This document shows, in pieces, positions 4,256-42,019 of a stretch of DNA of 48,116 nucleotides (positions are counted from its first letter, which is position 1; every line of letters starts with the position of its first letter). The translations under genes were made by a program, and so were the position numbers. Below the pieces are notes generated by a model. It was not told where the DNA came from and searched no databases. It was given only the letters and a program-made list of their open reading frames with translations. The DNA is from Planctomycetota bacterium (GTDB taxonomy: Bacteria; Planctomycetota; PLA2; JAEUHO01), in contig CBDCTJ010000006.1 of NCBI GenBank assembly GCA_965222115.1, positions 1 through 48,116 of the forward strand, read 5' to 3'.

Positions 4256-4765
4256 CTATTGCGAAGCGTCTAAAGTACTGTTCAGTTGCTTTTGTTCGCG
4301 TATCGCAACTTTTAAAGCTTTGTTTCTAGCTTCATTGGCTCTTTCGTTAGTTCGCCATGTTTCAGAATGGCGATGGTTATTACTGTAAGTACAGTAGTAT
4401 TCTACGCCAGCTTGATGCAACATTCTAGCACAATTTCCGCAAGGCATACGAGTAATGTAAGCGGTCCCACCTTTAAGAGATACTCCGTGACGAGCAGCAT
4501 GGGCAATGGCATTAGCTTCTGCATGTACACAAGGGCATATATTGTAACTTTTGCCGCCGTGTAAGCCTAATTTATCTCGCATACACTCTTGCATATCATC
4601 ACATTCACCACGCATAGGCCCGTTATAACCCATAGCTAATATAACGCCACTAGAATCTGCTATAACACAACCTGTTTTGCCACCAGGACAAACTGATCTG
4701 TCCTGACACAACGATTCTGCAATATTTAGCATTGTTCTTGGAATTGATTGTCTCACGTCTTCCAT
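4256..4765 (-). CDS. dCMP deaminase family protein
   Basis: GYNG, HAEANA and PCGNC zinc-deaminase motifs. Confidence 0.92.
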   Translation of the reverse strand: MEDVRQSIPRTMLNIAESLCQDRSVCPGGKTGCVIADSSGVILAMGYNGPMRGECDDMQECMRDKLGLHGGKSYNICPCVHAEANAIAHAARHGVSLKGGTAYITRMPCGNCARMLHQAGVEYYCTYSNNHRHSETWRTNERANEARNKALKVAIREQKQLNSTLDASQ

Positions 4766-5076
4766 TATCCTGTATTTGTAGTGTTAAACCTAAAATTAGG
4801 TCCATTTAGTAGTGTGTTCATTAAACTAATTACTTGGTTTTTAGTCATTACAAATACTTCAGTAGGACTACCTGGATCTATGCTTTTAGCACCTTCTACA
4901 AAAACAACTTCTATAGTTTCGTCGTCGTGAAAGTAATATTGCAGCCTACGTTCGCGATCAGTTAAATCACCTCCACAAAATTCTAATCCTGGCGAGTGTA
5001 AAGACGAACCTTTTAGTACTCTAGTATCAGAACCTACTGCACTAAGCTCATCAAAAATTTCATCAGAGATTGGCAA
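4765..5076 (-). CDS. Hypothetical protein
   Basis: 103 aa; TAATG overlap with the deaminase start. Confidence 0.6.
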   Translation of the reverse strand: MPISDEIFDELSAVGSDTRVLKGSSLHSPGLEFCGGDLTDRERRLQYYFHDDETIEVVFVEGAKSIDPGSPTEVFVMTKNQVISLMNTLLNGPNFRFNTTNTG

Positions 5077-5866
5077 GGCGTTTCTCCTCTACTGCAGCTC
5101 TTTCAAGCCACACGTTTAACCATCTATACAGTTTAGTACCTTTTTGTGCTCTACCAATTTGTTTAAGGTATCTAGCATAAACTTCTGCAAAAGAATTTTC
5201 AATGTGACCTCCTACACTTAGAGGAGGCGGTGCTTCACTTCTACGATAGTAATGTTCTGCCCATTCAAGTTCCCACTTTTTAGCTACTTGCAATTCAGTC
5301 CATGTTTTATACTTAGGAGGAACTTCATCTAGCCATGGCCAAACGAATTCTTTATCGTCTAATTTGTTTAAACCTTGCTTAGTAATTCCACCAGTATTAG
5401 TAAGCACACGATCTACCATAGCATTACCAGGAGGTATTATTATACCCGTAATGTACTTATAGTCATCTCTTGGCGTAAGTATACGGCTGTCCTGATAGTT
5501 TTGTATTTTAAGCTGTCCAGCAGAATAGTAATATCCTGCCGGATCTCTTCGAGCTCTTGCTCTTGTTTCTTTCGCGTACATGTACCAGTATAAGAACAAT
5601 GCACCTCGTCGCCATTTCCATCTGGCATAGGAACCAGCTCGAAACCGCCCTCTGGTATTAGTAGCCACCCATATGGGGTACACTTTTCTTGCTGCTTCAT
5701 CTAGTGTACATTTCCAAACCTTTCCTGGATGAGCGCTAGGAAGATCTATATAAGGAGGACCTTTAGGACGAGGAGGTTGCGGGAGTGCTTTTGTTATTGG
5801 AAGTGGTTTTAGTGTCCTTTTCTTTTCATGCCTTTTTGGAGGAACTATTTTAGGAGGACGCCCCAT
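5063..5866 (-). CDS. Hypothetical basic, Trp/Tyr-rich protein
   Basis: ATG at 5866 overlaps the TS-like stop (TAATG); N-terminal GRPPK basic/Pro-rich segment. Confidence 0.7.
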   Translation of the reverse strand: MGRPPKIVPPKRHEKKRTLKPLPITKALPQPPRPKGPPYIDLPSAHPGKVWKCTLDEAARKVYPIWVATNTRGRFRAGSYARWKWRRGALFLYWYMYAKETRARARRDPAGYYYSAGQLKIQNYQDSRILTPRDDYKYITGIIIPPGNAMVDRVLTNTGGITKQGLNKLDDKEFVWPWLDEVPPKYKTWTELQVAKKWELEWAEHYYRRSEAPPPLSVGGHIENSFAEVYARYLKQIGRAQKGTKLYRWLNVWLERAAVEEKRLANL

Positions 5867-6759
5867 TACCAACCAATACCTTCATGTGAAAAGTTATAAG
5901 GCTGCATAAATCCATGATCTGCATGTTTGTAGTCGCCGTTTAGTACATTAAGCAATGGATTTAGCGAAGGTACTATATTGTGGTTAAAAGTTTGGAATTC
6001 TAGAATATCATCTAGTTGATTGTTAAGACCTATACTAAAAGCATCACTAATCATAGGAGTACTTTCAATAGCATAACTTGTACGAAGTTTTGGTAAAATA
6101 TCTTCAGTATTTGATTCATACTTTGTATAAAGATGCATAGAGCCAGCTATATGAGTATAAGTTCCTATATCAACAGCAAGATAGTTTGCAATCATTTGTT
6201 GCCAAAGAGTAAACGTAAACATATCGTATGGCATACCTAAATATGCATCATTAGATCTCATATAGGTAGTTGCATGCAATTGTCCGTTACGTACTTGATA
6301 TTGTAAAGTCATTGTGCAAGGTGGTGTACCAGGATGCCTATAGCGAGGTAAATTTCCACAACTTGGACTTAATACTGCGCGTCTTGTATTGGAATTAATT
6401 GAAAGGTCATTTACTACTAAGTATAAGTCTGGGAACACTGATGGTCCATACGCCCAATAAGCATATTCAGTTTGATCTTGGTCTGCCACAAATTTAGTTA
6501 TTCCTTTAGAGTATGCCTTTAAGAAATCAACATCATTGCGTGGACACAAATTCCACAATGACTCAGCAAGTGCATACCTATAGTTAAATCGTCTTTCCAC
6601 ACATGAAATTAAATTATACTGTGGACTATGTACTTTAATAGCATAGTTAATTATTTCCCTAACAGTACCTAGTCTAGATTCTTGTTTTTGTGGCAATAAG
6701 AGTTGCTTAAGTGTCTGTTTGTACGCATCTGTTATTGTATCAACTGAAATACAATGCAT
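5866..6759 (-). CDS. Thymidylate synthase superfamily enzyme, dCMP hydroxymethylase/methylase-like
   Basis: AYG, TRRAV, PPC (catalytic Cys), MRSND, GMPYD, GSMHLY motifs; Asp at the pyrimidine-specificity position; GGAGG RBS. Confidence 0.88.
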   Translation of the reverse strand: MHCISVDTITDAYKQTLKQLLLPQKQESRLGTVREIINYAIKVHSPQYNLISCVERRFNYRYALAESLWNLCPRNDVDFLKAYSKGITKFVADQDQTEYAYWAYGPSVFPDLYLVVNDLSINSNTRRAVLSPSCGNLPRYRHPGTPPCTMTLQYQVRNGQLHATTYMRSNDAYLGMPYDMFTFTLWQQMIANYLAVDIGTYTHIAGSMHLYTKYESNTEDILPKLRTSYAIESTPMISDAFSIGLNNQLDDILEFQTFNHNIVPSLNPLLNVLNGDYKHADHGFMQPYNFSHEGIGW

Positions 6760-7285: not shown

Positions 7286-7672
7286 TTACGTTGTAGGACC
7301 GAGACGCAATGGTTCTAAGGTTACGTCACCTGTTCCCAAACAGCGTTCTTCTTTAGGTGTAACTGAGGTATCAGTATAGATCACATCGCATTGAAACTTA
7401 ATTTCATCTGTCTGACCGTCAGGTGAAATGTCAGTTAAAAACCACCACCTGAATATACCATTCGATCTGTTTTCCCAGGTACCGTGATCTGGATTACTAG
7501 TATTTCTAATAAAGGTAACAACTTTAGACCCATACTCGCGAAACCGCCACGTGATGATCCGTGCAGGATCAGTCATGTCGATAGCCACGCCATTCTTAGT
7601 CACAGACATTAACCATTCCCAAGTAGTCAGTCTATGAATGGTCCAGTAAAATTTCTTCTTATCGTGACTCAT
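7286..7672 (-). CDS. BppU N-terminal-like Ig-fold adaptor
   Basis: 128 aa; GVAIDMT, NGIFRW, FQCDV, GTGDVTL strand pattern; follows the repeat protein. Confidence 0.5.
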   Translation of the reverse strand: MSHDKKKFYWTIHRLTTWEWLMSVTKNGVAIDMTDPARIITWRFREYGSKVVTFIRNTSNPDHGTWENRSNGIFRWWFLTDISPDGQTDEIKFQCDVIYTDTSVTPKEERCLGTGDVTLEPLRLGPTT

Positions 7673-10029
7673 AACCTTACCTCAAATACCGTAGATGACG
7701 GTTCTTGGTAGTTTAGCGTAGAAGGTGCTGGTTCACTGTAGTCTAAAGTAGCAGCATCTGGATCATTATAGTTCAGGGTAGACTCAACTACTACTGTGGA
7801 GCCAGTAAACCGCGTGGAAAAGGAAGCTTCAGCACTCGCGTGTACAACGGATAGTTGAGCATTACTTGATCCTGAAAAAACAGAATCAGGCGAAAAGGTC
7901 GCTAACGAGCCAACAGATACTGCTGACAAACTGGCGTTAGTAGTAGCAGTAAAGGTTGGTGCAAACGTAGACGTAGAATCACTAACTACTATATGAAGAC
8001 TAGAGTGCGATGTTGCAGTGAATGTAGGCGATATGCTAGACGCACTCACTGAGGAACTGGCTATACTAATGCTAGAAGAAGAGGTAGCCGAACTAGACCC
8101 AGGATCAAACTGTGCACTAGAGCTAGATGCAACAATACTTAAGTTTTGGTCAGCGTTTGCGCTAAACACTGCTGCAGCATACACTGCTGTAGCACTACTA
8201 GATACCGTACCTACAGATCCAGACGCACTTGCAGTGAAAACAGGTGCTGTATGGGTAGCGCTAGATGAAGACTCTACAGATGCAACATTACTAGACGAAG
8301 TAGCAGTACGAGTAGGCTCAGTGTGGGTTGCAGTAGCACTACTCGATACAGAGCCAGCTACAGATGAGCCTGTTGCCGATCTTATCACATTTGAAAACGC
8401 TGCAGTAGCATTTGACGAAACTAGTCCTAACGCACTAGCTGACGTAGCAGAAAACGAAGGCGCTTCGTGTGATGAAGTAGAGCTAGACTCAACAATACTA
8501 ATAGAAGATGCGCCAGTGGCTGTGAATACTGGTGCAGTAGACGATCCGGTACTTGAACTCGTGACACTGCCTGCAACCCCATCAGAAGTAGCTGAACGCA
8601 CCACGGTAGACACAAGACCGGTAGCACTAGAATCTACTATGCTAAGTGAACTAGCCACAGTAGCTGTAAATACTGGTGCAGAATGGGTCGCTGTAGCAGA
8701 AGTGTCTGCTAGACTTAAGTCTGAACTTACTGAACCTGTTCTAGTAGCGGCAGAGTAACTTGCCGAAGCACTGGAAACCACCCCGCCCTTTAAGATAGAA
8801 GAGGTGGCGGTGAAGACAGGGGTTGTAGTAGTGCCAGTCGAACTAGACTCTAGTAAGGACAACTCACCTGAAGCGTTAGCAGTAAACACAGGTGCTGTGT
8901 GAGAACTAGTAGAATTAGACTCGACAATACCTAGAGACGCGGTTCCAGTGGCTGTAAACGTAGGCTGTGCGCTAGTGGCGCTTGATGCACTTTCAGCAAA
9001 GGTTTGGACAACACTGTCTGAAGTCCCACTGAATGTGGGCGCGACATTAGTACCGGAAGACGAAGATTCTACTACACTAAGGGTAGAAGCAGCTGTAGCC
9101 GTGAATACCGGCGCTGTGTAAGAACCGGTGCTTGAGGATTCTAGTACAGAAAGAGAACCACTAGCAGTTGCAGAGAACGTTGGCCCTGCGTGAGTAGCGG
9201 AAGAATTACTACCAACTACACTTAACTGGTTAGCGGCACTAGCAGTAAAAACCGGAGTTGTATGAGTTGCAGTACCAGCTGAGTTTACTGATGCAGCACT
9301 AGCACTTGCTGTAGCTTCCCGTGTCGCCAATGAGAAAGTTGCTGTAGCGCTAGATTGAATAGAGCCTGCGTCGCCAGCTGCTGAAGCAGTTCTAGTAGGA
9401 CCAATAAAGGAAGCAGAAGCGCTAGAACTTACACTGCCAGCAGAACCACTAGCTGTAGCGCTTCTTGTAGGAGCAGTGTAAGAAGCTGTAGCTGACGAGG
9501 TTCTTGGGGCAACTACACCAGCTGCAGTAGCTGTGAAGGTAGCAGCTGGTACGTCAGCTTCCCACCAAATAGCACCGATCTCGCAGCCGGCACGTTTGGA
9601 CGGGCTACCTCCTCCGCCACTAGTCTGGACTACTGCACACTCTACATTAGACCCGTCAGCAGTGGATAATTGGTTAGCGTTCCAGGTGGCGGTAACAACA
9701 GTCCCTGGGTCAGTAGCAGGTTCTGAATACGTGTTCAGAGTAGCGACAAGAACGCCACTCTCCCAAAGCTCAATCTTAAAGGGCGCCGTGTTAGTCCCGG
9801 AAGACGCAGCCCTTCTCATCCTTACTTTAAACGTTTGGAGCCCGGCCCCTACTGTTGGGTTACCAGACGGGGTATTGAACGCTACCCGAACACTTGTATC
9901 TCCGTTACCATCCCAAGCGCCCCAAAGAGTGTCGGCGTTATCTGGATCCTCGTTGATTCCACCGGACGTAATACTAGAATAGTTGGCGGAAGCCGCAATA
10001 GAGCTAATGGTGACATTCTCAATAGCCAT
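7669..10029 (-). CDS. Ser/Thr/Ala-rich repeat fibre protein
   Basis: 786 aa; ~160-aa N-terminal beta domain, 24 repeats of ~24 aa, three 10-aa C-terminal repeats. Confidence 0.8.
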   Translation of the reverse strand: MAIENVTISSIAASANYSSITSGGINEDPDNADTLWGAWDGNGDTSVRVAFNTPSGNPTVGAGLQTFKVRMRRAASSGTNTAPFKIELWESGVLVATLNTYSEPATDPGTVVTATWNANQLSTADGSNVECAVVQTSGGGGSPSKRAGCEIGAIWWEADVPAATFTATAAGVVAPRTSSATASYTAPTRSATASGSAGSVSSSASASFIGPTRTASAAGDAGSIQSSATATFSLATREATASASAASVNSAGTATHTTPVFTASAANQLSVVGSNSSATHAGPTFSATASGSLSVLESSSTGSYTAPVFTATAASTLSVVESSSSGTNVAPTFSGTSDSVVQTFAESASSATSAQPTFTATGTASLGIVESNSTSSHTAPVFTANASGELSLLESSSTGTTTTPVFTATSSILKGGVVSSASASYSAATRTGSVSSDLSLADTSATATHSAPVFTATVASSLSIVDSSATGLVSTVVRSATSDGVAGSVTSSSTGSSTAPVFTATGASSISIVESSSTSSHEAPSFSATSASALGLVSSNATAAFSNVIRSATGSSVAGSVSSSATATHTEPTRTATSSSNVASVESSSSATHTAPVFTASASGSVGTVSSSATAVYAAAVFSANADQNLSIVASSSSAQFDPGSSSATSSSSISIASSSVSASSISPTFTATSHSSLHIVVSDSTSTFAPTFTATTNASLSAVSVGSLATFSPDSVFSGSSNAQLSVVHASAEASFSTRFTGSTVVVESTLNYNDPDAATLDYSEPAPSTLNYQEPSSTVFEVRL
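7813..9543 (-). repeat. 24 degenerate tandem ~72-nt coding repeats (P-[VT]-[FR]-T-A-T-A...L-S-x-V-E-S-S-S-T-A-T-H-T-A)
   Basis: Counted by hand: 577 aa = 21 units of 24 aa, two of 25, one of 23. Confidence 0.85.
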
Positions 10030-19442: not shown

Positions 19443-21413
19443 CTACAGGTTCGTCGACATCCACCATTTTTTCACACCAGTAGCATCTGCTATGTATTTG
19501 TTTCCGGCCTTTGCGCTTGGGTGATCCCATGTTGGCTCCACGTCAATATCTATAAGTTTACCCCATGTAGGATTAAACTGTTCTACGTCACATTTCAAAG
19601 GTACACAAAATAGATTTTTGTCACCTAAAAATGATGCACAATATGCTGACAATATCTCTATAGCATCAGATTCAGGTAACTTTTTAGATATTCTAATACC
19701 TGCTTCATCATGTACTGTTACGTATTGCTCAGCTATTTTTTGGTTATGCTTACGATTCCACCAATTTAAGCAATGGTAGCCTCGCACTAGGGCACGTTTC
19801 ATTAGTGTACCACAGCCACCTTGGATAAGCCAATTAATGGCTTTATACCATTCACTACTACCTAAACGGTGAGTACGACCAAACCTGTCAACAACGCACC
19901 CAAACTCAGCAATTTGGTGTGCTGTTAATTCCTTTAAACGGTTAACACCAGGAAACCCTTCAAGATAAGCACGACGAAGTGCGCGTGTTTGGCCCATTGT
20001 AATCATTTCTTGAAGGTTGTCGTCTTGATTAATAGTTTCCATTGTAGTTTTATCGCCAGCACCATAAATAATGGCAAAATTCAAAGTCTTTGCTCTGAAG
20101 CGATCTTCTTTGGTAACTTCGCTTGAATTCCCCATTACATGCTTTATGCGTTCTGCAGTTCCTGTATGTGCGTCAACTTCATTTAGGAACATACTAATAA
20201 GAGTTTTATCTTGACTATAGTCTGCAAAATCTACCATTTCAACTTGTTTGTAGTCAGCATGATAAGTATAGTAGTTATTTGATATAAAACAATCACGTAC
20301 AGAATAATTTTTGATGCTGCCTTCACGTGGCATTTGTTGAATAGGCGGTTCAGCAGCTGACATTCTACCTGTGCGTGCACCAGTTTGTCTATACGAAGGA
20401 TGGATTTTACCATCCGGACATATAGCACTAAGAATTTGCTTTGATATTTTTGTAAATGCTTCTAATTTACGAATACGTCTAAGTCGCCTAATAACTAAAC
20501 TATTAGGTGCATGTCTTTTAAGTGCATTTTTACCGCAAGATTTATTACCTGTTTTAGTAAAGTCTAAACATTCTAGACCTAATTTTTCATACATAAACTC
20601 GCGCATTTGCTTAGGTGAACGTTGATTAGGAGTGTAACCTACTTCTGCTTTTATTTTGCTATACTGATAGTCTATAGCAGAAAGTGCTTTTTCTACAGAA
20701 GATTCTAAGTATTCTTCATTTACAGGTAAACCATTGTTATGCATATCAATAAGCACTGGAACAAGATACATTTCAGTATTAAAGGTTGGCATCATATTAT
20801 CGCGTTCTAAGCCACCTTTAAGTAAATACCACATATACATGGTCATTTTACCGTCATCTTCTATGTACCGTCCCATTATTTCCCATGGTACATGAGAGTA
20901 GTTAGGCTCGCAGCCATAAGTAGTATGACAGTATTGGCGATTGCGAGCAATCCATGTTTTGACTTCAGAGTCTGATCCAGGTTCTATAAGTGGCTTACCA
21001 TCTTTTCTAAGATAGGCAGCAGAACACTGTTTTAGTCTAAATGGAAAAGCTTTTTCATCTAACAAACTTATAGCTACTTGAGCATCTGCCCATGGCCATT
21101 GCAGCTCTATACCATAGGTAGCAGTAATCATTCGCCAATCAAAGCCAATGTTCCAACCTACCTTTAAGACATCGGGATTTTCTAGTATGGCATGCAGTAT
21201 ACGTTTGTTTGTAGGTGAGCCAAAACCTTCAGCTCTCACTGATTCTAAGTATGCGCCTTCTTCCCGCAGAACTTTACAATCACCTGTATCAGAATACAAA
21301 ACCGTGGCAAATACACGGGCACCTTTATGCACATATAGTCCTGTTGTTTCACAGTCAAATGCAATAGCTTTATTGTACTCTAATCGGAAATCTCCGACTT
21401 CGATTGTTGGCAT
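19443..21413 (-). CDS. polA: DNA polymerase family A with 3'-5' exonuclease
   Basis: FDCETTGL, WNIGFD, YIEDD exonuclease motifs; ARTGRMS, ADYKQVE (A), RAKTLNFAIIYG (B), TVHDE (C); ATG 21413 has GAGG RBS. Confidence 0.95.
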   Translation of the reverse strand: MPTIEVGDFRLEYNKAIAFDCETTGLYVHKGARVFATVLYSDTGDCKVLREEGAYLESVRAEGFGSPTNKRILHAILENPDVLKVGWNIGFDWRMITATYGIELQWPWADAQVAISLLDEKAFPFRLKQCSAAYLRKDGKPLIEPGSDSEVKTWIARNRQYCHTTYGCEPNYSHVPWEIMGRYIEDDGKMTMYMWYLLKGGLERDNMMPTFNTEMYLVPVLIDMHNNGLPVNEEYLESSVEKALSAIDYQYSKIKAEVGYTPNQRSPKQMREFMYEKLGLECLDFTKTGNKSCGKNALKRHAPNSLVIRRLRRIRKLEAFTKISKQILSAICPDGKIHPSYRQTGARTGRMSAAEPPIQQMPREGSIKNYSVRDCFISNNYYTYHADYKQVEMVDFADYSQDKTLISMFLNEVDAHTGTAERIKHVMGNSSEVTKEDRFRAKTLNFAIIYGAGDKTTMETINQDDNLQEMITMGQTRALRRAYLEGFPGVNRLKELTAHQIAEFGCVVDRFGRTHRLGSSEWYKAINWLIQGGCGTLMKRALVRGYHCLNWWNRKHNQKIAEQYVTVHDEAGIRISKKLPESDAIEILSAYCASFLGDKNLFCVPLKCDVEQFNPTWGKLIDIDVEPTWDHPSAKAGNKYIADATGVKKWWMSTNL

Positions 21414-22174
21414 GGCTTTACCTCTACGCCACATGTAGTACATACACCATTAGGTAGAATGTTGCACACTCTATCCATAATAATGCATTCAGGTAGCTGC
21501 TCTGATACGGTTTTTAGAATAAAGTTAGACTCATGTGTTATTCCTGAGTCTTTACTTTTAGGTACAATACCACACTCATCGATAATCCAATTAGCTGTAG
21601 CTAGTTCATCTCCTACGTCTTCAGGTAATGTAGTTGTAACATGATTTAGCTTATGGTAAACTAGCCCACGAATAATGCCATCTATAGCTTGTTGGTAAAC
21701 AATACTATCAGATCGATAACAGTCTAGTACAAGTGGTAACCTTCCAAATGGCATCATTATTACTTGATCGTATGGATGCGTTGTTATGTGCATCATACAA
21801 CGATTCATCATGCGTAATGATTCATTTTCAAGAAGTTTTTGTTTACGTTTCCATTTTCCACCAAATCGAGGCAATACTGATGACCAGTATACAAAATAAG
21901 CTGCACTATCAAGAACAGTACGCTCTGCTATCCAGTTATGGTCTACAGCACTAGCGTTATTTTCGCATTCTATTTGGTTTTCTATTATTTCTACTTGCAC
22001 TTTTACATAAGTAAGAGGATCTTGGTCTAGATTTCTTTCTATAGATACAGTATTGTTTCGTTCAAATACAATTCTAGCTTGGGATTGTATATATCGATAC
22101 TTCATTAATGAAGCAATTTCAAGAGCTGTACATGTTTTACCTGTACCGCCAGAACCAGATAATGCTATCCTCAT
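21380..22174 (-). CDS. P-loop nucleotide kinase (AAA_28/NadR-like, probable dNMP kinase)
   Basis: MRIALSGSGGTGKT and ERTVLDSAAY motifs. Confidence 0.8.
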   Translation of the reverse strand: MRIALSGSGGTGKTCTALEIASLMKYRYIQSQARIVFERNNTVSIERNLDQDPLTYVKVQVEIIENQIECENNASAVDHNWIAERTVLDSAAYFVYWSSVLPRFGGKWKRKQKLLENESLRMMNRCMMHITTHPYDQVIMMPFGRLPLVLDCYRSDSIVYQQAIDGIIRGLVYHKLNHVTTTLPEDVGDELATANWIIDECGIVPKSKDSGITHESNFILKTVSEQLPECIIMDRVCNILPNGVCTTCGVEVKPCQQSKSEISD

Positions 22175-22659
22175 AGCTCTATACCATTTTTAGTGCGTTG
22201 GTCGTGGTCCTCTAGTACTTCTTTAATAGCAGGCGCCCTGTAAGAACTACCTTTAGATCTGAGACGGGTGTCTTTTTCGTCTCGTAGAGCTTTAGTCATG
22301 TTAGATTGATGTACTTCCCAGAATACATCTGCACATGGAATGTTATAAGTAACTGCAGTACCTATTACAACATATAGAAGGTCTGCAATAGCATCTGCGG
22401 CCATGATGCGATTGCCTCTAGATAGTGCTTCAGCTAACTCAGAAGCTTCTTCTAGAATTAAATGTAAGCGTACTAAAGATGTATCAGGAATACCTACAAA
22501 CTCTGAATCTTCAGCAAAGTTTAGTACTTCCTTAGACATAGCTTTTAGTCTATTAGCATGTCTAGTTAAGTAGTAACTATCACAACATTCTACTGGAATG
22601 TTTATTGGAAAGTTATATTTTTTGTGAAAACTTTCAACAGCACTTTGTTCTGCGTCCAT
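22171..22659 (-). CDS. MazG/PRA-PH-like NTP pyrophosphohydrolase
   Basis: LILEEASEL...DAIADLLYV...EVHQSNMTK motifs. Confidence 0.88.
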   Translation of the reverse strand: MDAEQSAVESFHKKYNFPINIPVECCDSYYLTRHANRLKAMSKEVLNFAEDSEFVGIPDTSLVRLHLILEEASELAEALSRGNRIMAADAIADLLYVVIGTAVTYNIPCADVFWEVHQSNMTKALRDEKDTRLRSKGSSYRAPAIKEVLEDHDQRTKNGIEL

Positions 22660-30660: not shown

Positions 30661-30689
30661 ATTATACAGTATGAAAACGCAAATGTACA
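30661..30689 (-). promoter_or_regulatory. Promoter for the replication region
   Basis: ctgTATAAT at 30661-30669; TGTACA 17 nt upstream of TATAAT; AGGAG RBS downstream. Confidence 0.6.
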
Positions 30690-30692
30690 GTT

Positions 30693-31049
30693 TTAATCAC
30701 CACTAGAACTATTTAGTGAAGATGCTATTTTGTTAAGAGATTTAGAAATTTCTATTAGACGACTGTTCATTCTGTCTAAACGTTGTTCAAGTGCTTTGGA
30801 ACTAGCTCTAGTTTCTGCTCGCCATTCTTCCAAAGATCTTATTCTAGGACGTAAATCTTTTTCAATTTTAACTTCATTTTGATTTGCATGTTTATCAGCA
30901 GCACTAGCAGTACTAGCTACTGACCCGTAATGCATAGATAATGCAGCTGTAGTAACTACAACAGATACAGCAGCTGTAACTAATGCTCTAACCCAATTGG
31001 GAATTACTAAAGACCCCTCACTTTGTTCACCCATTGGGTACTCCCTCAT
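30693..31049 (-). CDS. Single-TM coiled-coil protein (holin-associated or i-spanin-like)
   Basis: N-terminal hydrophobic helix then long heptad region. Confidence 0.6.
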   Translation of the reverse strand: MREYPMGEQSEGSLVIPNWVRALVTAAVSVVVTTAALSMHYGSVASTASAADKHANQNEVKIEKDLRPRIRSLEEWRAETRASSKALEQRLDRMNSRLIEISKSLNKIASSLNSSSGD

Positions 31050-31063
31050 TGTACCAGTAAAAA

Positions 31064-31249
31064 TTACTGAATTTTCTTCTTAGCTACTACTCGCCCTATA
31101 ATTACCATAATAGCAGAAACAGCTTCAGCTACTATAGCAATAGTTTTAAGTAGTTGGTCTTCTGTAACGTTGCCAAGTATCATAGCACCTATAAGAGCTA
31201 AGGCTGCTTGAATTGTTTTGGATTGCCACCACTTTTTTGTTTCTTTCAT
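31064..31249 (-). CDS. Probable holin
   Basis: 61 aa, KKWWQSKTI start, two hydrophobic helices, basic IGRVVAKKKI end. Confidence 0.7.
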   Translation of the reverse strand: MKETKKWWQSKTIQAALALIGAMILGNVTEDQLLKTIAIVAEAVSAIMVIIGRVVAKKKIQ

Positions 31250-32193
31250 ACCAATTTTACCAATCCGCCACAGCTACGAATAGCATATGGCATATCTACT
31301 CCAAAAGTTAAGTCTCTACCTGTATGGTCTGGACCACCTGCAAATAGCAAATTAGTAGCATGTAGATCTCGACCTGCAATCATGCTAGCACCTGAATGAC
31401 CACCTTGCGAAAAATCACCACCTCCAGGTTTAGTAGCCACAGTAACATTGTTAAAGTAGGCAATACCATTATCGTATGCTACAGGTTGCCCTTTAACACC
31501 CATAGCAATATATTCACCTTTTTGTGAACCAATAGTTCTACCATCGTTTCCAACTTCTTGATTCATATCTTCAGGTTGCGTAGATCGAATACCCTTAATA
31601 TCGCTATCAAACACATGAGACCATCTAGTAAGAACGTCAACATTGCGTAACTTAATAGACGCAGCATCTGTCATGTTAGTTGCAGTAAAAGAAATAGGTA
31701 CATACCTATATAATGACCCAATTGCTTTATTACCTTGATTAATTACATGTCCAGGTAAAAGTTTGTTTACCCCAGCAGCTACATGATTATTTGTCATCCA
31801 CAACAAAACATTTGGGTCTTCTGCGCTAGGTACAGGTAATGATCCTGTACCTACCCATGGCATACCCAGTGGACTAATTTGCGAACCTGATACTAATACT
31901 TTTTGGGTTCGTTGAAAAAATTGAGCCGTAGCCCTAGCTTTAGGGACTTTAGGAGTATAAACAATATCTGTTTCTTTAGGCGCATACGATTTAATAGTAT
32001 CAGCTTGTTTAAGATCTCTAGCAAGTACAAAAAGTCTAAATGATTTACCTTTCTTTGTATACCCAACAGCAGCACCTGGAATAGGTGCGTCTTCAGTAGA
32101 CTCTGAAAATGCTTTAGCTGCATCTGTTTTTGGTTCTGGAACTAAGTCGTCCCACAACTCAGTCATTAATGACTTTACACTTGTGTATCTCAT
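31246..32193 (-). CDS. Trypsin-fold serine protease, Nal1-like
   Basis: TNNHV (His), TDAA (Asp), FSQGGHSGA (Ser), LLFAG; N-terminal pro-domain-like region; no signal peptide. Confidence 0.8.
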   Translation of the reverse strand: MRYTSVKSLMTELWDDLVPEPKTDAAKAFSESTEDAPIPGAAVGYTKKGKSFRLFVLARDLKQADTIKSYAPKETDIVYTPKVPKARATAQFFQRTQKVLVSGSQISPLGMPWVGTGSLPVPSAEDPNVLLWMTNNHVAAGVNKLLPGHVINQGNKAIGSLYRYVPISFTATNMTDAASIKLRNVDVLTRWSHVFDSDIKGIRSTQPEDMNQEVGNDGRTIGSQKGEYIAMGVKGQPVAYDNGIAYFNNVTVATKPGGGDFSQGGHSGASMIAGRDLHATNLLFAGGPDHTGRDLTFGVDMPYAIRSCGGLVKLV

Positions 32194-32630
32194 TTAACTA
32201 CTGTTACCTTACTTTTAGCTTTCTTAACAACCATATTGTTACGAAAAGATACCATAATAGCCCATTGATCGCTATCTATAGTAATACGCCAAGTTACTAG
32301 ATTGTCTTCACCAGGATTCTCTTCAGGATCTTCGTAAGGTGTTCCAAGAAGAGATAGAACTTTTTCATAAGATGCTCCCGCCTCAATACCTTCAAAATCG
32401 TTGCCTGGATCAGTAGGAGGCGGGAGCGGTGGGTTTACAGGTTCATCAGGATTATTTGGTTCTCCTGGGTCTATTGGCGATACAGGGGGATCACCTAAAG
32501 GGTTATCAGGAGGTGCTGGAGGGGGGGAGATGGGAGGATATGTGGGTGGAAATCCTAAATCGTCGTTTAGGCGAGCGGTACACCCACATACAAGCAGACC
32601 AAACAAAATAGCTACTACTGTTTTACCCAT
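32190..32630 (-). CDS. Pro-rich lipoprotein with SmpA/BamE-like C-terminal domain
   Basis: Signal ending LVCG-C; PP-rich linker; FEGIEAGASYEKVLSLLGTP motif. Confidence 0.7.
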   Translation of the reverse strand: MGKTVVAILFGLLVCGCTARLNDDLGFPPTYPPISPPPAPPDNPLGDPPVSPIDPGEPNNPDEPVNPPLPPPTDPGNDFEGIEAGASYEKVLSLLGTPYEDPEENPGEDNLVTWRITIDSDQWAIMVSFRNNMVVKKAKSKVTVVK

Positions 32631-32664
32631 AATAGTTTAACCTAAATTGCAATATAGTATAAAC

Positions 32665-32985
32665 TTACTGAACGCAAGGATCCATACTAGTATATGGTAC
32701 AGTTTGATTATACGATTGTTGTGGTGTAAAAGGATCCCAGTTTAGTACAGCACCATCCCATACTACGCCAGCTTTAAATGTAAAGGGCCCAGCTGGAACA
32801 TTTACTGCAATAATTTCTTGAGGACCGACAACTCCAGGCTGTCCGTCTACAGCAGCACGTGCACTAGGTGTATACCCACTTTGAGCCAAAGCAGCTCGAG
32901 AAGACATACTAGTTCCTAGAATACCACATCCAGACAGCATTAGCATTGCGCTCAACATCATTAAAATCGTAGTAAAACGATTCAT
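32665..32985 (-). CDS. Lipoprotein
   Basis: Signal ending LSG-C lipobox; AGGAGG RBS. Confidence 0.75.
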   Translation of the reverse strand: MNRFTTILMMLSAMLMLSGCGILGTSMSSRAALAQSGYTPSARAAVDGQPGVVGPQEIIAVNVPAGPFTFKAGVVWDGAVLNWDPFTPQQSYNQTVPYTSMDPCVQ

Positions 32986-33378
32986 TTATACCTCCTCTTT
33001 TGGCATATTAAACGCCTCTATTAGTTTAGCCCATCTTTCACGACAACTAAGTCGTTTATGAGCATTTCTAGCCAAAGTTTCTGTAACTTTAGCAGGATCT
33101 TTTATTATATCGTTTGAGTTCCCATACGCGTAAGGATTACTCCACGTCTCTAAAACTTTATGTCCTAAAGGTAGTGAGCATGGTGCACCAAGTTTAAAAT
33201 TGCTTGCTGTTCTCCAGTATATTCTACCTTTAGAAGTACAACATTTAGCGAGGATTCTGGTAAACAGTTTTGTATGGCGGTATTTAAGATACCTAGCTAC
33301 AGGAAATGCGTAAATATGACCTTCATAATAAGGTCCACCGTCTACATTATTATCTTGATTAGTAATAACTAAAATCAT
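32986..33378 (-). CDS. Hypothetical protein
   Basis: 130 aa; ATGA overlap with the tail gene. Confidence 0.6.
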   Translation of the reverse strand: MILVITNQDNNVDGGPYYEGHIYAFPVARYLKYRHTKLFTRILAKCCTSKGRIYWRTASNFKLGAPCSLPLGHKVLETWSNPYAYGNSNDIIKDPAKVTETLARNAHKRLSCRERWAKLIEAFNMPKEEV

Positions 33379-37502: not shown

Positions 37503-40500
37503 TATAGATTACCTACAGCTGCTTCTAATTGGCGAAGACGATCTTCTTGTTCTTTCTTTTGTTGTTGAACTCTTTCTATTAAAGTTGTAACAATTTTAGC
37601 TACACGTGCAGTACCTTCAAGAGTCATATTACCAAGCTCGGCGGTGTTGATCCCCACAGCTTCAAGCGCTTTTATTTGTTCAGCTGAAAAGTCCAAAAGT
37701 TTAGCAGTTTCGTCTTTCTTTTCAGCATTCAAAGCATCCATAGCAGCACCTAGATTGCTAAGCGCTCCTTCTATTTGCTCTGCCGATTGCTTAGTAGTTT
37801 CTTCTACAGCTGCTGCACTATCAGCAGCTTTAGAAGCTTCTTCACTCGTCTTAGTAGTTCCAGATGAACCGACCGAAGCAGACTCACCTTGCGCAGATTC
37901 TAGTGATTTCTTAAATATTTCACGTTGAGCTTTTCGTTTTTCAGCTGCTTTACGGAGTTCAGCAATTTTAGCTCTTCTAGCAAGTTCACGTTTGTAGCTA
38001 ACTCGAACAGGACCGAAAGCTCCTGGTCTCTGTTGAAAACCTGTAATCTCACCGTCTGCGTTTCTTAAAGGATCCCCAAGTGTTAATCCAAGAGGTCCTT
38101 GTCTAATACCAAAACCAGTACCTGCTATATTGCTTGTATCACCAAACGGTTGAAATGATTGCCTCAAACGATCTCTATTAAATTGTTTTCTGAGACGAAC
38201 TATATCTTGTTTACTAAGAGGTTTAGGTTTCTTTTTACGCTTTGGTTTTTTATTCTTGCCAAATTGGTCACCTTCAGCTAATGCTTGCAAAGCAACTTTA
38301 ATAGCATTGTCACCAATACTAGGTGCAGTTAAGCTTGGCGTTGCTTTTGGTGCTTTTCCAATAAATAGCCCTGTCGGATCATCAGCAGTGGGACCAACGT
38401 TAAGTCCAGCTAATGCTTTAGCAGTGTTTTGAGTATGGTTTTCTATAGCGCTAAGTGAGGATGATGTTTGTTGTACTTTAGCTTCAGTTTTGGTAGTATT
38501 AACAGTATCAAACAAGTTAACTTGTTTGCCAGCATTACCACCGTCTCCTCCTGCACCACCATCTCCACCGTTAGATACTCCATCGCCATCCTGGTCTGGG
38601 TTATTAGGATTAATACCGTTTGGTGAGTGTATAATAGCTTGTTCAATATTTTTAAGTAACTGCTGAGTTTTCTTTTCAGCTTCCTCTGCGAGCTCTATCA
38701 GCATCTACTCGTGCTCTAACTTCAGCTTCAGTAGATTTTTTGTAAACCTGTTATAATATCTCCAAATTCTGCAACAGGTCCAAAGTAGCTATCTTGGTCT
38801 TTAGGATCTATATCAAATCTACGCAATTGTGAAGTAGCATCATTTACAATTTCTAAACTTTCAGTAAGCAAACCAAGATCTTTACTGACTGCTTGATTTA
38901 TAGTTTCTGCAACTTCATCTGTTATAGTGACACCAATAGATTTAAGTTGATGAACAATAGATTGCTTTACATCTTTTGCTACATCGTCTGAATCAAATGT
39001 ATCTAACCCTGTAAAAGTATCATCGGCAGTACGAGCTCTCGACAAAATAACTTCAAAAGCTTTAGTTACCGCATTAATTATTTGTTTGTCTCGTTCATCA
39101 GCTTTTGCAAATTCTCCAAATCCAGGTCTAGATGAGTTTAGCGATCCAAATGTATTTATAGATCTAGCTAAGTTAGCACCAGCTAACGATGCGATACTTC
39201 TAGTACCAGTTGTTGCTAATTGTCTATCTGCTACAAGAGTGCGAGGCGAATCACTAGTAGCAAAATCAATAGGATTTTTAGCAAGCAACATAATTTCTTT
39301 TAGCTCGTTAGTTGCTTTGTTTATAAGTGGTTCAACTGTTTGTAAAAAATCAGCAAATGATGAGCGCATGAAATCAATCATACGCGCCCATAAAACTTCT
39401 ATTTCTTCAACTAGCCCTATAATTGGATTAGTATCACCAGCTGCAATAGCTTCTATACTAGTCCATAAAGACTTGAAACCTTTTTCAATACTAGTCCACG
39501 TTTTGGTTACAGTAACACCTAAATTTTCGTCTCCTAAAGCTTTTGCAAGTGTATCTCCTACTAATTGACTAGTAACTACTAAAGCTTTAAATATAGTAGA
39601 CATTACATTAAATGTCTGTTTAGCTCCATCTACAATTTTAGACCAATTTTTGATTATATAGTCTATAGCATCAAAAAAGTAATCAACTACATTAGTAAGT
39701 GCAAATTTTGTAGCATCTTGTATAGTTTTTCCATTTTTTAGAAAAAATCCGTCTATTTGACTAGTTAGTTGACCAACTCGTACAACAACTTGATCAGCGG
39801 CAGCAGCAAAACTTGGAGCTAAAGTGTTAAATGCACTTTTAAATGTATTCTGTATAGTATTGGTAACTACTTTAACTTTATTGTTAATAGTAGCAGTTTG
39901 TATTTCAAGACCAGCTTCAATAGCTTGACCAGTATCTTCTGTAATAGCTTTAATAGCTTGTGATGCTCTATCTTGAGCAGACACCATAGCTGCAAAAGCT
40001 GCCAATGCTCTTTTTTCAGGGATAATTTTTCTAAGTTGTTCTGGTTTAAGGTCTAGTGCACTGAGTTTCTGGACAGACTGATTAATACCAATAAAATCAC
40101 CAACAGAACGTTGAAATAACCCAAATTCATCTTTAGATCTTTTCAGTTCTTTACGTAAGTCTCTAAGAGCTAATTTTTGTGAGTGACTCCGCTTACGAAG
40201 ACGAGCAAGACTTTCTGCTAGTTTCTCCATTTGAGCAATTCTAGCTTCTCGTTGTGACAATCCTTTCTTTTCTTCAGCAGTATATGTTTTTAAAGATATA
40301 CCAAGCTGATCCATTGCTTTTTTAGCTTCAAAAGTTGGAGCAGCTAATGACAATACAAGGTTTTTAGTTCCTACAAATACTTGTCTAGGAACAAGACTTT
40401 TAGACGCAAGTACCAAAGTAGACAATAAGTCGTCTAGAGTAACATCAAAGTTAGCAGCAATACCCGATGCTGCTTGAATACCATCTGAAAGCTGTTTAAA

Positions 40501-42019
40501 ATTAAACCTACCAAGAATAGCAGTTTTAAACATTTTACTTAGTGTAGCTTCTGTATCTTCTGCTTTCAAATTAAAAGCTGAAAGAACACCAGTAGCTGCT
40601 TGAGCAACTGAAAAAACATCTGTCTCACTACCACCTGCTACTGTAGCTTTAGCAACCCCTTCAAGAACTTGAAGTGCTTCTTCGGGAGATGATTGTTAAT
40701 TGAGTTGATACAATTTCAAATAAACCAGACGCTAAGTCTTTTTTCAATAGAGGAAGTTTATTAGATATAGAAATAATTGATTCTTCAATAAGCTTAAATT
40801 TGTCGGCACCAATTTCAGGTGTTTGTGTAAAAATATCAGCTAATGAAGATTGGAAGTCTGCAAATTTCCTAAACCCAGTAGTAGCTAAATCTATACCTGT
40901 ACTAATTACTTTACCTAATACTTTACCAGCAAGATCGCCTACCTTTCCTAGAACGGAACCTACCGCGCTGAAAATACTTGTTATTGCGTCGCCTACTACT
41001 GTTAGGGCGGTTGTTACTAAGCTTGATACAGTATTTACTAAACCTTCTACTAGTCCGCCGGCTACCTCCACCAAACCTGAAATAGCATCTGTAATGCCTC
41101 TTACTATGCCAGATACTAGATTTGTTGTACCTACAAGCAAACCTGCAAATAAGAAACCTACTTTCGGAATAAAAAATGATAGCGAAGCAGTAAGGTTACC
41201 AAACAAACTAATAAATAACGCAGCAATACCACCAGCTGCTTTAGTAACCAATGATGATAATTGCGTTATTAACCGTATAGATTTTGGTATAAGTTGATTT
41301 AAATTTGTAAACCCAGATCTAAGAGTAGATGCTAAACTGGTTAATCCGCCACCAAGTTGTCCACCAAATAGCGATGCTTGGGATCCAGCTAAAGAACCTG
41401 CAAAAATTAAGTTGAAACCAGCGTTACGTAACCCACTAAAAAACTGGTCTATTCTCTTTTTACGTCTAAGTAATCTTTCTCGTTCTTCTCGTTCAGCTTT
41501 AGCTTCTCTTTGCCGCTTTTCTCTAAAGTATTGTTGTTCGCCTTGACGTCTAGCTCGTAGAACAGATTGTCTGTACCTGTTGGCACCTATAGCTATTCTT
41601 CTAGCATTTTTAGCTGCTTCGTTTTCAGCTCTAGTTCTAGCTTTTAGTTCTGTAGTTACTGCACGGGTTTCTTGATTAAGTTGCCTACGAATAATTTGCG
41701 TACGACGCAAACGCTTTCTTGCTAAGTCGCGTTGGTTTTTATTACCAGCATTTTGAATACGAAGTTGGAATCTTACTTCCATTAACTCCATTGTACGAAG
41801 TGCACGCTGTCTCTCATTTACAAGCTTACGTAAATCAGCAGTAGACTTTCTAGAGAAATCTCTAGACGCCTGAGTCATATTCTTAAAGGTACGAGTAATA
41901 GTGGCTGATGCTTGCGATTTAGATGCTTCACCAGTCAGACGTCTGAACGCAGCAATAGCAGTATTGACTGCATTTTGCGTAAGGTCAAGCGCCTCAATTC
42001 TGATAGTTACATCAGCCAT
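37502..42019 (-). CDS. Tail tape measure protein, ~1504 aa, split by +1 frameshifts near 40693, 38738 and 38687
   Basis: MADVTIRIEALD start; TP901-type core continues across the first break (GLFEIVS...PEEALQVLEGVAKA...APTFEAKKAMDQLGI). 37502..38704 could alternatively be a separate gene. Confidence 0.85.

Follow-up and report, generated by a model that had tools for sequence, protein, structure and literature searches.

A putative lysis cassette with a NAL1-like serine peptidase in a Planctomycetota-associated phage contig

The holin–endolysin–spanin cassettes of the lambda type (S, R, Rz/Rz1), known from tailed phages with Gram-negative hosts, are the closest described counterparts of a group of five genes at positions 30693–32985 of a phage contig that was binned with a Planctomycetota genome. 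We analysed this contig at its full length of 48,116 bp, called the window here (contig C6; the assembly has seven contigs and 4.55 Mb), and compared its cassette with the described systems. The likeness to the lambda type lies in clustered and coupled genes, a small membrane protein beside a signal-less enzyme, a protein with a transmembrane segment and coiled coil and Pro-rich lipoproteins nearby, and the location at the end of the late operon. The cassette differs in its enzyme, which is a chymotrypsin-fold serine peptidase and not a glycosidase, an amidase or a metallo- or cysteine-peptidase. It also differs in having a dedicated lipoprotein, predicted to be a docking partner, and spanin-like genes three genes apart, and no component passes a family threshold. 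From profiles and structural models, we read the cassette as a lysis module in which a NAL1-like serine peptidase, directed at the envelope and released at lysis, would replace the endolysin, and we give this reading a probability of about one half.

All five genes are on the minus strand. They encode lipoprotein 1 (106 residues, 32665–32985), lipoprotein 2 (146 residues, 32190–32630), the protease (315 residues, 31246–32193), a small membrane protein (61 residues, 31064–31249) and a protein with an N-terminal transmembrane segment and a C-terminal coiled-coil-like region (118 residues, 30693–31049). The genes of lipoprotein 2 and the protease share an ATGA at 32190–32193, and those of the protease and the 61-residue protein share another at 31246–31249. 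An initial annotation, made from the sequence alone, had described these five open reading frames (ORFs), the ATGA overlaps and two lipoproteins; the ORFs, both overlaps and both lipoboxes are all present. It had also placed the cassette at the end of the late operon, and this position agrees with the gene order, in which the cassette follows the tail genes and precedes the replication genes and the best promoter-like site. This site (TGTACA-17-TATAAT, 30661–30689, minus strand), a sigma-70-like consensus match with 10 of 12 positions, would start the helicase and replication transcription unit; it is the best of the 19 sites between 28500 and 36000, although their number is not above the shuffled expectation. 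Since this site and the helicase gene come next, the cassette appears to close the late operon.

The plant protein NARROW LEAF 1 (NAL1; Nal1_C/NAL1_N) and its prokaryotic relatives are the nearest family of the protease by both profile and fold. In plants, NAL1 works as a regulatory protease in the cytoplasm or the nucleus. The 315-residue protein by itself matches zero Pfam families, no PDB sequence and none of 50,697 phage records, and a word-based search of 5.8 billion proteins finds only the protein itself. However, a HMMER scan of 1.84 billion cluster representatives yielded 338 relatives at E ≤ 1e-3, of which 58 pass 1e-10 and 12 pass 1e-30; the top match other than the protein itself is 41% identical. 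We built an alignment of the window protein and 101 of the 149 listed non-self matches, the best of the 338; 18 likely fragments or fusions and the 30 weakest matches were dropped. Seven residues (His137, Asp176, Ser267, Gly103, Gly115, Gly265 and Gly268) are invariant across the 102 aligned sequences. The family consensus reads LSNNHVLA, VDAAxA and GDSGSLI, and the window protease carries GGHSG at the last of these motifs; GHSG in place of GDSG is found in 12 of the 13 closest sequences, a subgroup that holds the window protease. At E ≤ 0.01, the Pfam family Nal1_C is matched by 78 of the aligned members, Trypsin_2 by 35 and Peptidase_S64 by 12. Of the 102, 89 match phrog_20754, a 'protease'. 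The family profile matches the rice NAL1 chains at 4.5e-20, and streptogrisins, alpha-lytic protease and the Lysobacter lytic endopeptidases at 1e-6 to 7e-3. Family membership is given by the profile of the relatives, as the window protease itself falls below the Pfam gathering cut-off.

The AlphaFold2 model of the protease is confident, with a predicted local distance difference test (pLDDT) of 95.3 and a predicted template modelling score of 0.80, and shows an N-terminal alpha/beta domain of ~95 residues followed by two beta-barrels. Foldseek ranks NAL1 first (2.5e-14), followed by alpha-lytic protease, Lysobacter L1 and L5, and streptogrisin B, with TM-scores on target of 0.74–0.81 for the alpha-lytic protease, Lysobacter and streptogrisin structures. 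A fold search of BFVD returned two unnamed viral proteins and 3C-like proteases of RNA viruses, and nothing on function. On the profile and the model, the protein is confidently assigned as a clan PA serine peptidase of the NAL1-like family (Pfam PF25819, Nal1_C). It lacks a signal peptide, because no 19-residue window of the sequence is hydrophobic. The description of a signal-less trypsin-fold protease is thus borne out by the invariant triad, the family profile and the model. The comparison with the alpha-lytic protease family, which includes Lysobacter L1 and L5 (PDB 5mrr and 5mrt), shows the same fold and His-Asp-Ser triad, with a TM-score on target of ~0.76 and a profile match of 5e-4 to 7e-3. 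However, the window protease has the N-terminal alpha/beta domain of ~95 residues and the GGHSG motif, and groups with NAL1 and not with S1E. L1 and L5 are secreted by a predatory bacterium with a pro-region and act from outside, whereas the window protease is signal-less. Since both Lysobacter enzymes hydrolyse the peptide bridges of peptidoglycan (PMC12250508), they provide a precedent for a murein endopeptidase of the S1 fold. Compared with the NAL1 relatives, lipoprotein and membrane-protein neighbours are specific to the GHSG subgroup of the window.

LpoA and LpoB are outer-membrane lipoproteins with long flexible linkers that reach the penicillin-binding proteins (PBPs) and activate these synthases in growing cells. 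Lipoprotein 2 resembles them in architecture: it is lipid-anchored and has a long linker followed by a small domain proposed to bind a wall-acting enzyme; no homology is claimed. It has a hydrophobic N-terminus that ends in a lipobox (VCGC, Gly16-Cys17), a Pro-rich linker of ~59 residues and a C-terminal domain of ~70 residues, which is the proposed docking partner of the protease. The Pro-rich lipoprotein of the initial annotation therefore stands, whereas its BamE-like label corresponds to sub-threshold matches (DUF3862 at E=0.065 and BamE at 0.25 in Pfam, and BLIP at 0.058 in PHROG). In complex prediction, the protease and residues 76–146 of lipoprotein 2 gave an ipSAE of 0.74 in three of three runs, compared with 0.00 for the best of three controls. 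In the benchmark, 58 of 80 solved complexes and 2 of 110 mismatched pairs scored at least this high, counts that apply only roughly here because custom alignments were used (13 rows for the protease and three for lipoprotein 2). At least 90% of the contacts are common to the runs, and the partner has a pLDDT of 79. The C-terminal strand of lipoprotein 2 (residues 140–146) is predicted to pair with residues 182–191 of the protease, and the whole predicted interface on the protease comprises residues 97–99, 120, 130, 182–191, 196–198 and 315. The triad residues lie outside this interface, so the contact looks like docking and not inhibition.

A relative of 488 residues, P0022, shows the two parts in one frame. 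It has a hydrophobic leader ending in LLLAGC, a Pro-rich stretch and a domain of ~55 residues, followed by a NAL1-like protease. The alignment of lipoprotein 2 matches residues 38–149 of P0022 with an hhalign probability of 89.9% and an E-value of 1.7e-6, a score that comes partly from the Pro-rich and signal regions; plain BLASTP finds nothing. Judged by its sequence, P0022 is a protease built for export. Together with the predicted complex, the fusion supports binding of the protease by the C-terminal domain of lipoprotein 2. The predicted partner is an exported lipoprotein, and for this reason the protease probably acts outside the cytoplasm. A protease without a signal peptide could reach an exported partner only through a membrane lesion such as a holin makes. 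This requirement is the main argument for a role in lysis, and it also argues against a cytoplasmic virion maturation protease acting on capsid, scaffold or tail proteins. The initial annotation had offered maturation of virion proteins as an alternative, and no prohead protease of the HK97 or ClpP type is found among the Pfam and PHROGs matches of the window; in addition, many RNA viruses use chymotrypsin-fold proteases to process their polyproteins. However, the fold belongs to clan PA and is neither HK97-type (S78/U35) nor ClpP-type, and the gene does not lie between the portal and capsid genes but ~14 kb from the capsid genes and past the tail fibre gene. A scaffold-like gene with a weak match (phrog_206, 8.4e-4) precedes the capsid gene. 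Moreover, the conserved partner is exported, and P0022 is fused to it behind a lipobox. With the lipoprotein neighbour, the predicted complex and the lipoprotein–protease fusion all disfavouring it, we consider virion maturation very improbable.

A holin-like protein in tandem with a signal-less peptidase is also known from a bacterial locus, ChiW/ChiX of Serratia marcescens, where the pair serves protein secretion (PMC4259817). In the window, by comparison, the enzyme is an S1 serine peptidase, the locus is a phage late operon and a lipoprotein partner is present. ChiX is a metallopeptidase, an L-Ala-D-Glu endopeptidase. The 61-residue protein of the window has a Lys-rich C-terminus (AKKKIQ) and is a holin candidate by size, position and coupling. 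Of the two transmembrane segments that had been described, one corresponds to a strong hydrophobic stretch (windows starting at residues 32–39), whereas the N-terminal stretch is weaker. None of its family matches rises above noise: the best PHROG holin match is at E=0.5, and the only Pfam one, PNTB_4TM at 0.0065, falls below the cut-off of that family. Regarding the spanin-type proteins, lipoprotein 1 has a signal peptide and the lipobox LSGC, and is a candidate o-spanin by its features. Pro, Gly and Val are abundant in its mature part, which has a single C-terminal Cys, a strong AGGAGG site is located upstream of its gene, and its lipid-attachment matches are sub-threshold (LPAM_1 at 0.053 in Pfam and the LptM signal at 0.013 in NCBIfam). 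The 118-residue protein is an i-spanin candidate on the same kind of evidence. Its N-terminal transmembrane segment and coiled-coil-like region are as had been annotated, but its best spanin match, to the PHROG Rz-like spanin, reaches E=0.011 and is sub-threshold. The genes of lipoprotein 1 and the 118-residue protein are not adjacent, overlapping or nested.

We then compared the window with other cassette-bearing contigs. Each of the ten closest protease homologues is a singleton on a Logan or ENA contig. A degenerate DNA pattern that encodes three motifs of the subgroup (WVGT..T..HV..GHSG) had 0 matches in IMG/VR, and was found in three metagenome contigs and one genome contig. These four contigs (L002–L005) have ~70% guanine-cytosine (GC) content and are near-identical to one another. 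L004 encodes, on a single strand, a 100-residue transmembrane and helical protein, a 69-residue ORF, a Cys/Pro-rich lipoprotein, a small ORF, a 122-residue Pro-rich lipoprotein, the protease and a 77-residue membrane protein, after which the coding strand flips. The lipoprotein stop and the protease start share one base, and the gene of the 77-residue membrane protein starts 8 bases past the protease. L005 has the same gene order from the Cys/Pro-rich lipoprotein on, with a small membrane protein of ~74 residues after the protease. The proteases of L004 and L005 are 35% identical to the window protease, and their Pro-rich lipoproteins are 37% identical to lipoprotein 2 (BLASTP E=0.006 for the L004 counterpart), with an invariant Gly-Cys lipobox and an EN.GED motif in the C-terminal domain of ~65 residues. 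As aligned, the conserved core is lipoprotein 2 with the protease, each time followed by a small membrane protein. Because this order is kept in distant relatives, the ORFs are real genes and not chance frames. The other components do not align in this way: outside its signal peptide, lipoprotein 1 shows no detectable homology to the Cys/Pro-rich lipoproteins that L004 and L005 encode (hhalign probability 5.6%), the 118-residue protein has no sequence similarity to the 100-residue ORF of L004, and the 61-residue protein aligns collinearly with the 77-residue protein of L004 at an E-value of 0.6, which is not significant. The initial annotation had asked whether homologous cassettes sit beside holins and lack endolysins. 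A small membrane protein does follow the protease and no classical lysin gene is present inside any cassette copy (window, L004 or L005), but the membrane proteins are alike in features only. In another of the four contigs, L003 (464–1661), the N-terminal part of the protease is replaced by an unrelated sequence that overlaps an opposite-strand frame of a DtxR/MntR-like repressor; this region could represent a junction, the remains of a prophage or a chimeric assembly.

The lack of detectable conservation between the membrane proteins of the window and L004 is compatible with a different role, in which the genes form a late-expressed moron cassette for envelope remodelling, superinfection exclusion or anti-defence, with membrane proteins unrelated to holins or spanins. 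Every holin or spanin match is sub-threshold, and members of the protease family are found in non-lysis contexts. Lipoprotein genes past tail-fibre genes are often exclusion genes, as with T5 Llp and Cor. However, the signal-less protease needs a membrane lesion to meet its periplasmic lipoprotein partner, and a small membrane protein comes next after the protease in the window, L004 and L005 alike. A moron cassette would also leave the genome without any recognisable lysis gene. We regard this explanation as quite unlikely.

Mycobacteriophage LysB, an esterase that acts on the mycolyl-arabinogalactan link, is a serine hydrolase known from a lysis cassette; the envelope layer that it targets is not that of the glycan strands. 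It has an alpha/beta-hydrolase (cutinase-like) fold, cleaves an ester bond and in known cases always accompanies LysA. In contrast, scans of the window with Pfam, PHROGs and NCBIfam show no LysA equivalent. Neither Pfam (E ≤ 0.01) nor PHROGs identifies an amidase, a muramidase or a murein peptidase in 59 ORFs, and no muralytic domain was found in the 27 ORFs of unknown function at Pfam E ≤ 10 or in 54 ORFs with NCBIfam. The claim that no amidase, muramidase or peptidoglycan endopeptidase is recognisable thus agrees with the profile searches at the level of known families. By analogy with LysB beside LysA, the lipoprotein–protease pair may be an accessory lysis factor that strips an extra layer or tether, while a muralytic enzyme of unrecognised type degrades the peptidoglycan. 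This would suit the binned host, whose full peptidoglycan machinery implies a wall that must be breached, as well as the many window ORFs without assignment, the lipoprotein anchor with its long linker, which fits a target near the membrane, and the wider protease family, which is not known for murein action. However, none of the three hidden Markov model libraries shows a candidate muralytic ORF, the conserved cassettes of L004 and L005 contain none, and S1-fold enzymes that cut murein bridges exist (PMC12250508). On balance, we consider an accessory role unlikely.

The initial annotation had assumed a host with little peptidoglycan and a proteinaceous target. The assumption is contradicted by the binned assembly, which has four PBP-transpeptidase matches and five Mur-ligase matches, including a cluster at C7:2052–2056 kb. 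Planctomycetes are reported to possess peptidoglycan, and the make-up of their envelope, protein or peptidoglycan, was long disputed (PMC4432640). Therefore, the host with little peptidoglycan has no support from either the genome or the published account, and a peptidoglycan cross-link is at least as likely a target as a proteinaceous layer.

Under the lysis reading, the protease would be produced in the cytoplasm in its signal-less state. The 61-residue membrane protein, as a holin suggested by position, size and translational coupling, would pass the folded enzyme to the periplasm late in infection. There, the protease would dock onto the possibly BamE/BLIP-like C-terminal domain of the lipid-anchored lipoprotein 2, as the gene adjacency, the predicted complex and the fusion suggest, and the Pro-rich linker of ~59 residues would keep it at a set distance from the membrane, within the wall layer. 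The tethered protease may then cleave a peptide part of the envelope, either stem-peptide cross-links or wall or tether proteins. Finally, the 118-residue transmembrane/coiled-coil protein and lipoprotein 1 could form a spanin-like pair, proposed from their features, that disrupts the outer membrane. The full scheme, in which a lipoprotein adaptor holds a holin-released S1 protease that breaks down the peptide or protein part of the planctomycete envelope, with no glycan-cutting or classical murein-peptidase endolysin involved, is put forward tentatively, and we hold it to be more doubtful than the lysis role of the cassette itself.

Several findings weigh against the cassette being a lysis module with a protease in place of the endolysin. 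The holin and spanin labels are given by features with sub-threshold family matches (E from 0.011 to 0.5), and these candidates show no recognisable homology to the L004 proteins in the corresponding positions. As L002–L005 are near-identical, they represent just one further independent lineage. The P0022 fusion is a single protein among the 150 matches listed, the best of the scan. About 35 of ~60 window ORFs are without assignment, so a muralytic enzyme of an unrecognised family could exist. The GC mismatch between the phage and the assembly leaves the host link to binning only. Proteases of the wider family are found in non-lysis contexts, namely planctomycete chromosomes (L021–L024) and a 484-kb uncultured phage; thus, the fold alone predicts nothing about lysis, and the lysis reading is confined to the GHSG subgroup with the lipoprotein. 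Lastly, a review lists ten types of cell-wall peptidase domain, and the chymotrypsin/S1 fold is absent from that list (PMC6403190).

The surroundings of the wider-family genes were also compared. On two of the planctomycete chromosomes (L021, 9461–10976, and L023, 9474–10699), the protease gene is followed by an ORF of 77–83 residues that resembles, by eye, the small N-terminal domain of the protease family, and no lipoprotein-like or holin-like neighbour is present. In the 484-kb uncultured phage (LR756508), none of the ORFs that flank the wider-family gene looks like a lipoprotein or holin gene. Aeropyrum coil-shaped virus (HE681887/NC_043427) has a further member of the wider family, annotated as a 'putative serine protease'.

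Regarding novelty, tblastn with three queries found no such cassette in the 50,697 phage records. Searches of open-access full text found no trypsin-like or serine-protease endolysin, no endolysin-less lysis cassette and no lysis study of planctomycete phages. What may be new here is a cassette of the holin/lysin/spanin type whose enzyme belongs to a new class and is joined by an adaptor lipoprotein. If the full scheme is true, the protease would be the first endolysin of the chymotrypsin fold and the first lysin known to have a lipoprotein adaptor, and the cassette would be the first lysis mechanism described for a Planctomycetota phage and a first view of phage exit from planctomycete cells. 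If the protease is the wall-breaching enzyme, the chymotrypsin fold would be a new catalytic class in phage lysis, and a lipoprotein adaptor that positions the enzyme would be a new lysis principle. The lipoprotein–protease pair would be a compact two-compartment complex that forms only after the inner membrane is breached, and the protease could serve as a probe of planctomycete wall cohesion and as a reagent to lyse cells that resist disruption.

The window carries the gene set of a tailed phage (terminase, portal, capsid, tail and replication) according to Pfam and PHROGs matches of its 59 ORFs, with no integrase among these matches, and nearly all genes are on the minus strand. The virion part comprises a scaffold-like gene, an SU10-type major capsid protein, a tail tube and a tape measure split over two ORFs, followed by four large tail genes without family assignment and the five-gene cassette. 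The replication module past the cassette encodes an SNF2-type helicase, a PD-(D/E)XK exonuclease, a Sak4-like ATPase, a primase-helicase and a family A polymerase; many small genes without assigned function, a second virion set, nucleotide-metabolism genes, the large terminase and the portal make up the rest. An orphan ORF of 130 residues (32986–33378, minus strand) lies between the cassette and a 700-residue tail-fibre-like gene, overlapping the stop of the latter at 33375–33378. It has no Pfam, PHROG or NCBIfam match and finds only itself among the 5.8 billion proteins; there is no usable match in Atlas, and its single-sequence AlphaFold2 model is uninformative (pLDDT 45). Across the 50,697 phage records, no terminase match exceeds 24% identity, and the capsid protein matches only the Myxococcus phages Mx8 and Mx9, at ~25% identity (tblastn for both). 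In IMG/VR, no related locus was found for the window protease, P0002, P0004, P0005, P0006 or the terminase, and the contig is present in one sample of one study, with no RNA dataset listed for it. On these comparisons, the phage is distant from everything cultured. We read it as a novel siphovirus-like phage that is probably associated with Planctomycetota.

To assess the host, we compared the window with the other six contigs of its assembly. The window has 39.7% GC and the others have 55.4–59.0%, a gap of up to ~19 points that is unusual for a phage and its host. There is no spacer-like or blastn match between the window and these contigs, and no tRNA; weak tblastn matches were found for just three of 57 phage proteins. 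The initial annotation had guessed an unusual host, and this guess gains from the binning of the window with a Planctomycetota genome and from the sole other cassette-bearing bin, which is in the same family. This bin, the one match of the cassette in the genome collection, is a metagenome-assembled genome of a Planctomycetia bacterium; its cassette-bearing contig is 2.5 kb long, and its GC content agrees with that of its own bin (70–77% in five sampled contigs). Two phylum-wide samples, one centred on this genome and one on the window's assembly, gave an identical set of 14 match locations, which places the two genomes in one phylum, and a search of the class assigns them to one family. At E ≤ 1e-20, a cassette-type protease is found in two of 29 genomes of the window's family and in none of 11 genomes of the sister family, with no further genome in a sample of 400 from the phylum. 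No relatives of the terminase or capsid protein were found in the 39 other genomes of the class. The host links of both cassette-bearing contigs are binning links, and a shared habitat could inflate their coincidence. Taken together, a planctomycete host is likely.

Several other parts of the window also show distinct features. First, the tape measure (38728–42019, minus strand) is split into consecutive ORFs of 452 and 613 residues that are ~90 bases apart, both of which match a tape-measure PHROG. Second, a 786-residue protein (7669–10029, minus strand) is encoded in a local island of 50% GC. It has an N-terminal domain of ~160 residues and dozens of Ser/Thr/Ala-rich repeats of the type TAPVFTATASG..S.VESSSTG; its gene adjoins virion genes (the phrog_3758 structural protein and a Gp80-like fibre protein), and it has no Pfam or PHROGs match itself. 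Third, the segment 10650–13600 is the sole stretch with plus-strand ORFs and long intergenic gaps; it encodes an acidic 261-residue protein with a helix-turn-helix-like segment, and may be a regulatory or origin region. Lastly, two minus-strand segments (4256–6759 and 21380–22659) encode a thymidylate-synthase-like protein, a dCMP deaminase, a MazG-like pyrophosphohydrolase and an AAA_28/thymidylate-kinase-like protein; these genes of nucleotide metabolism jointly suggest a modified pyrimidine in the phage DNA.

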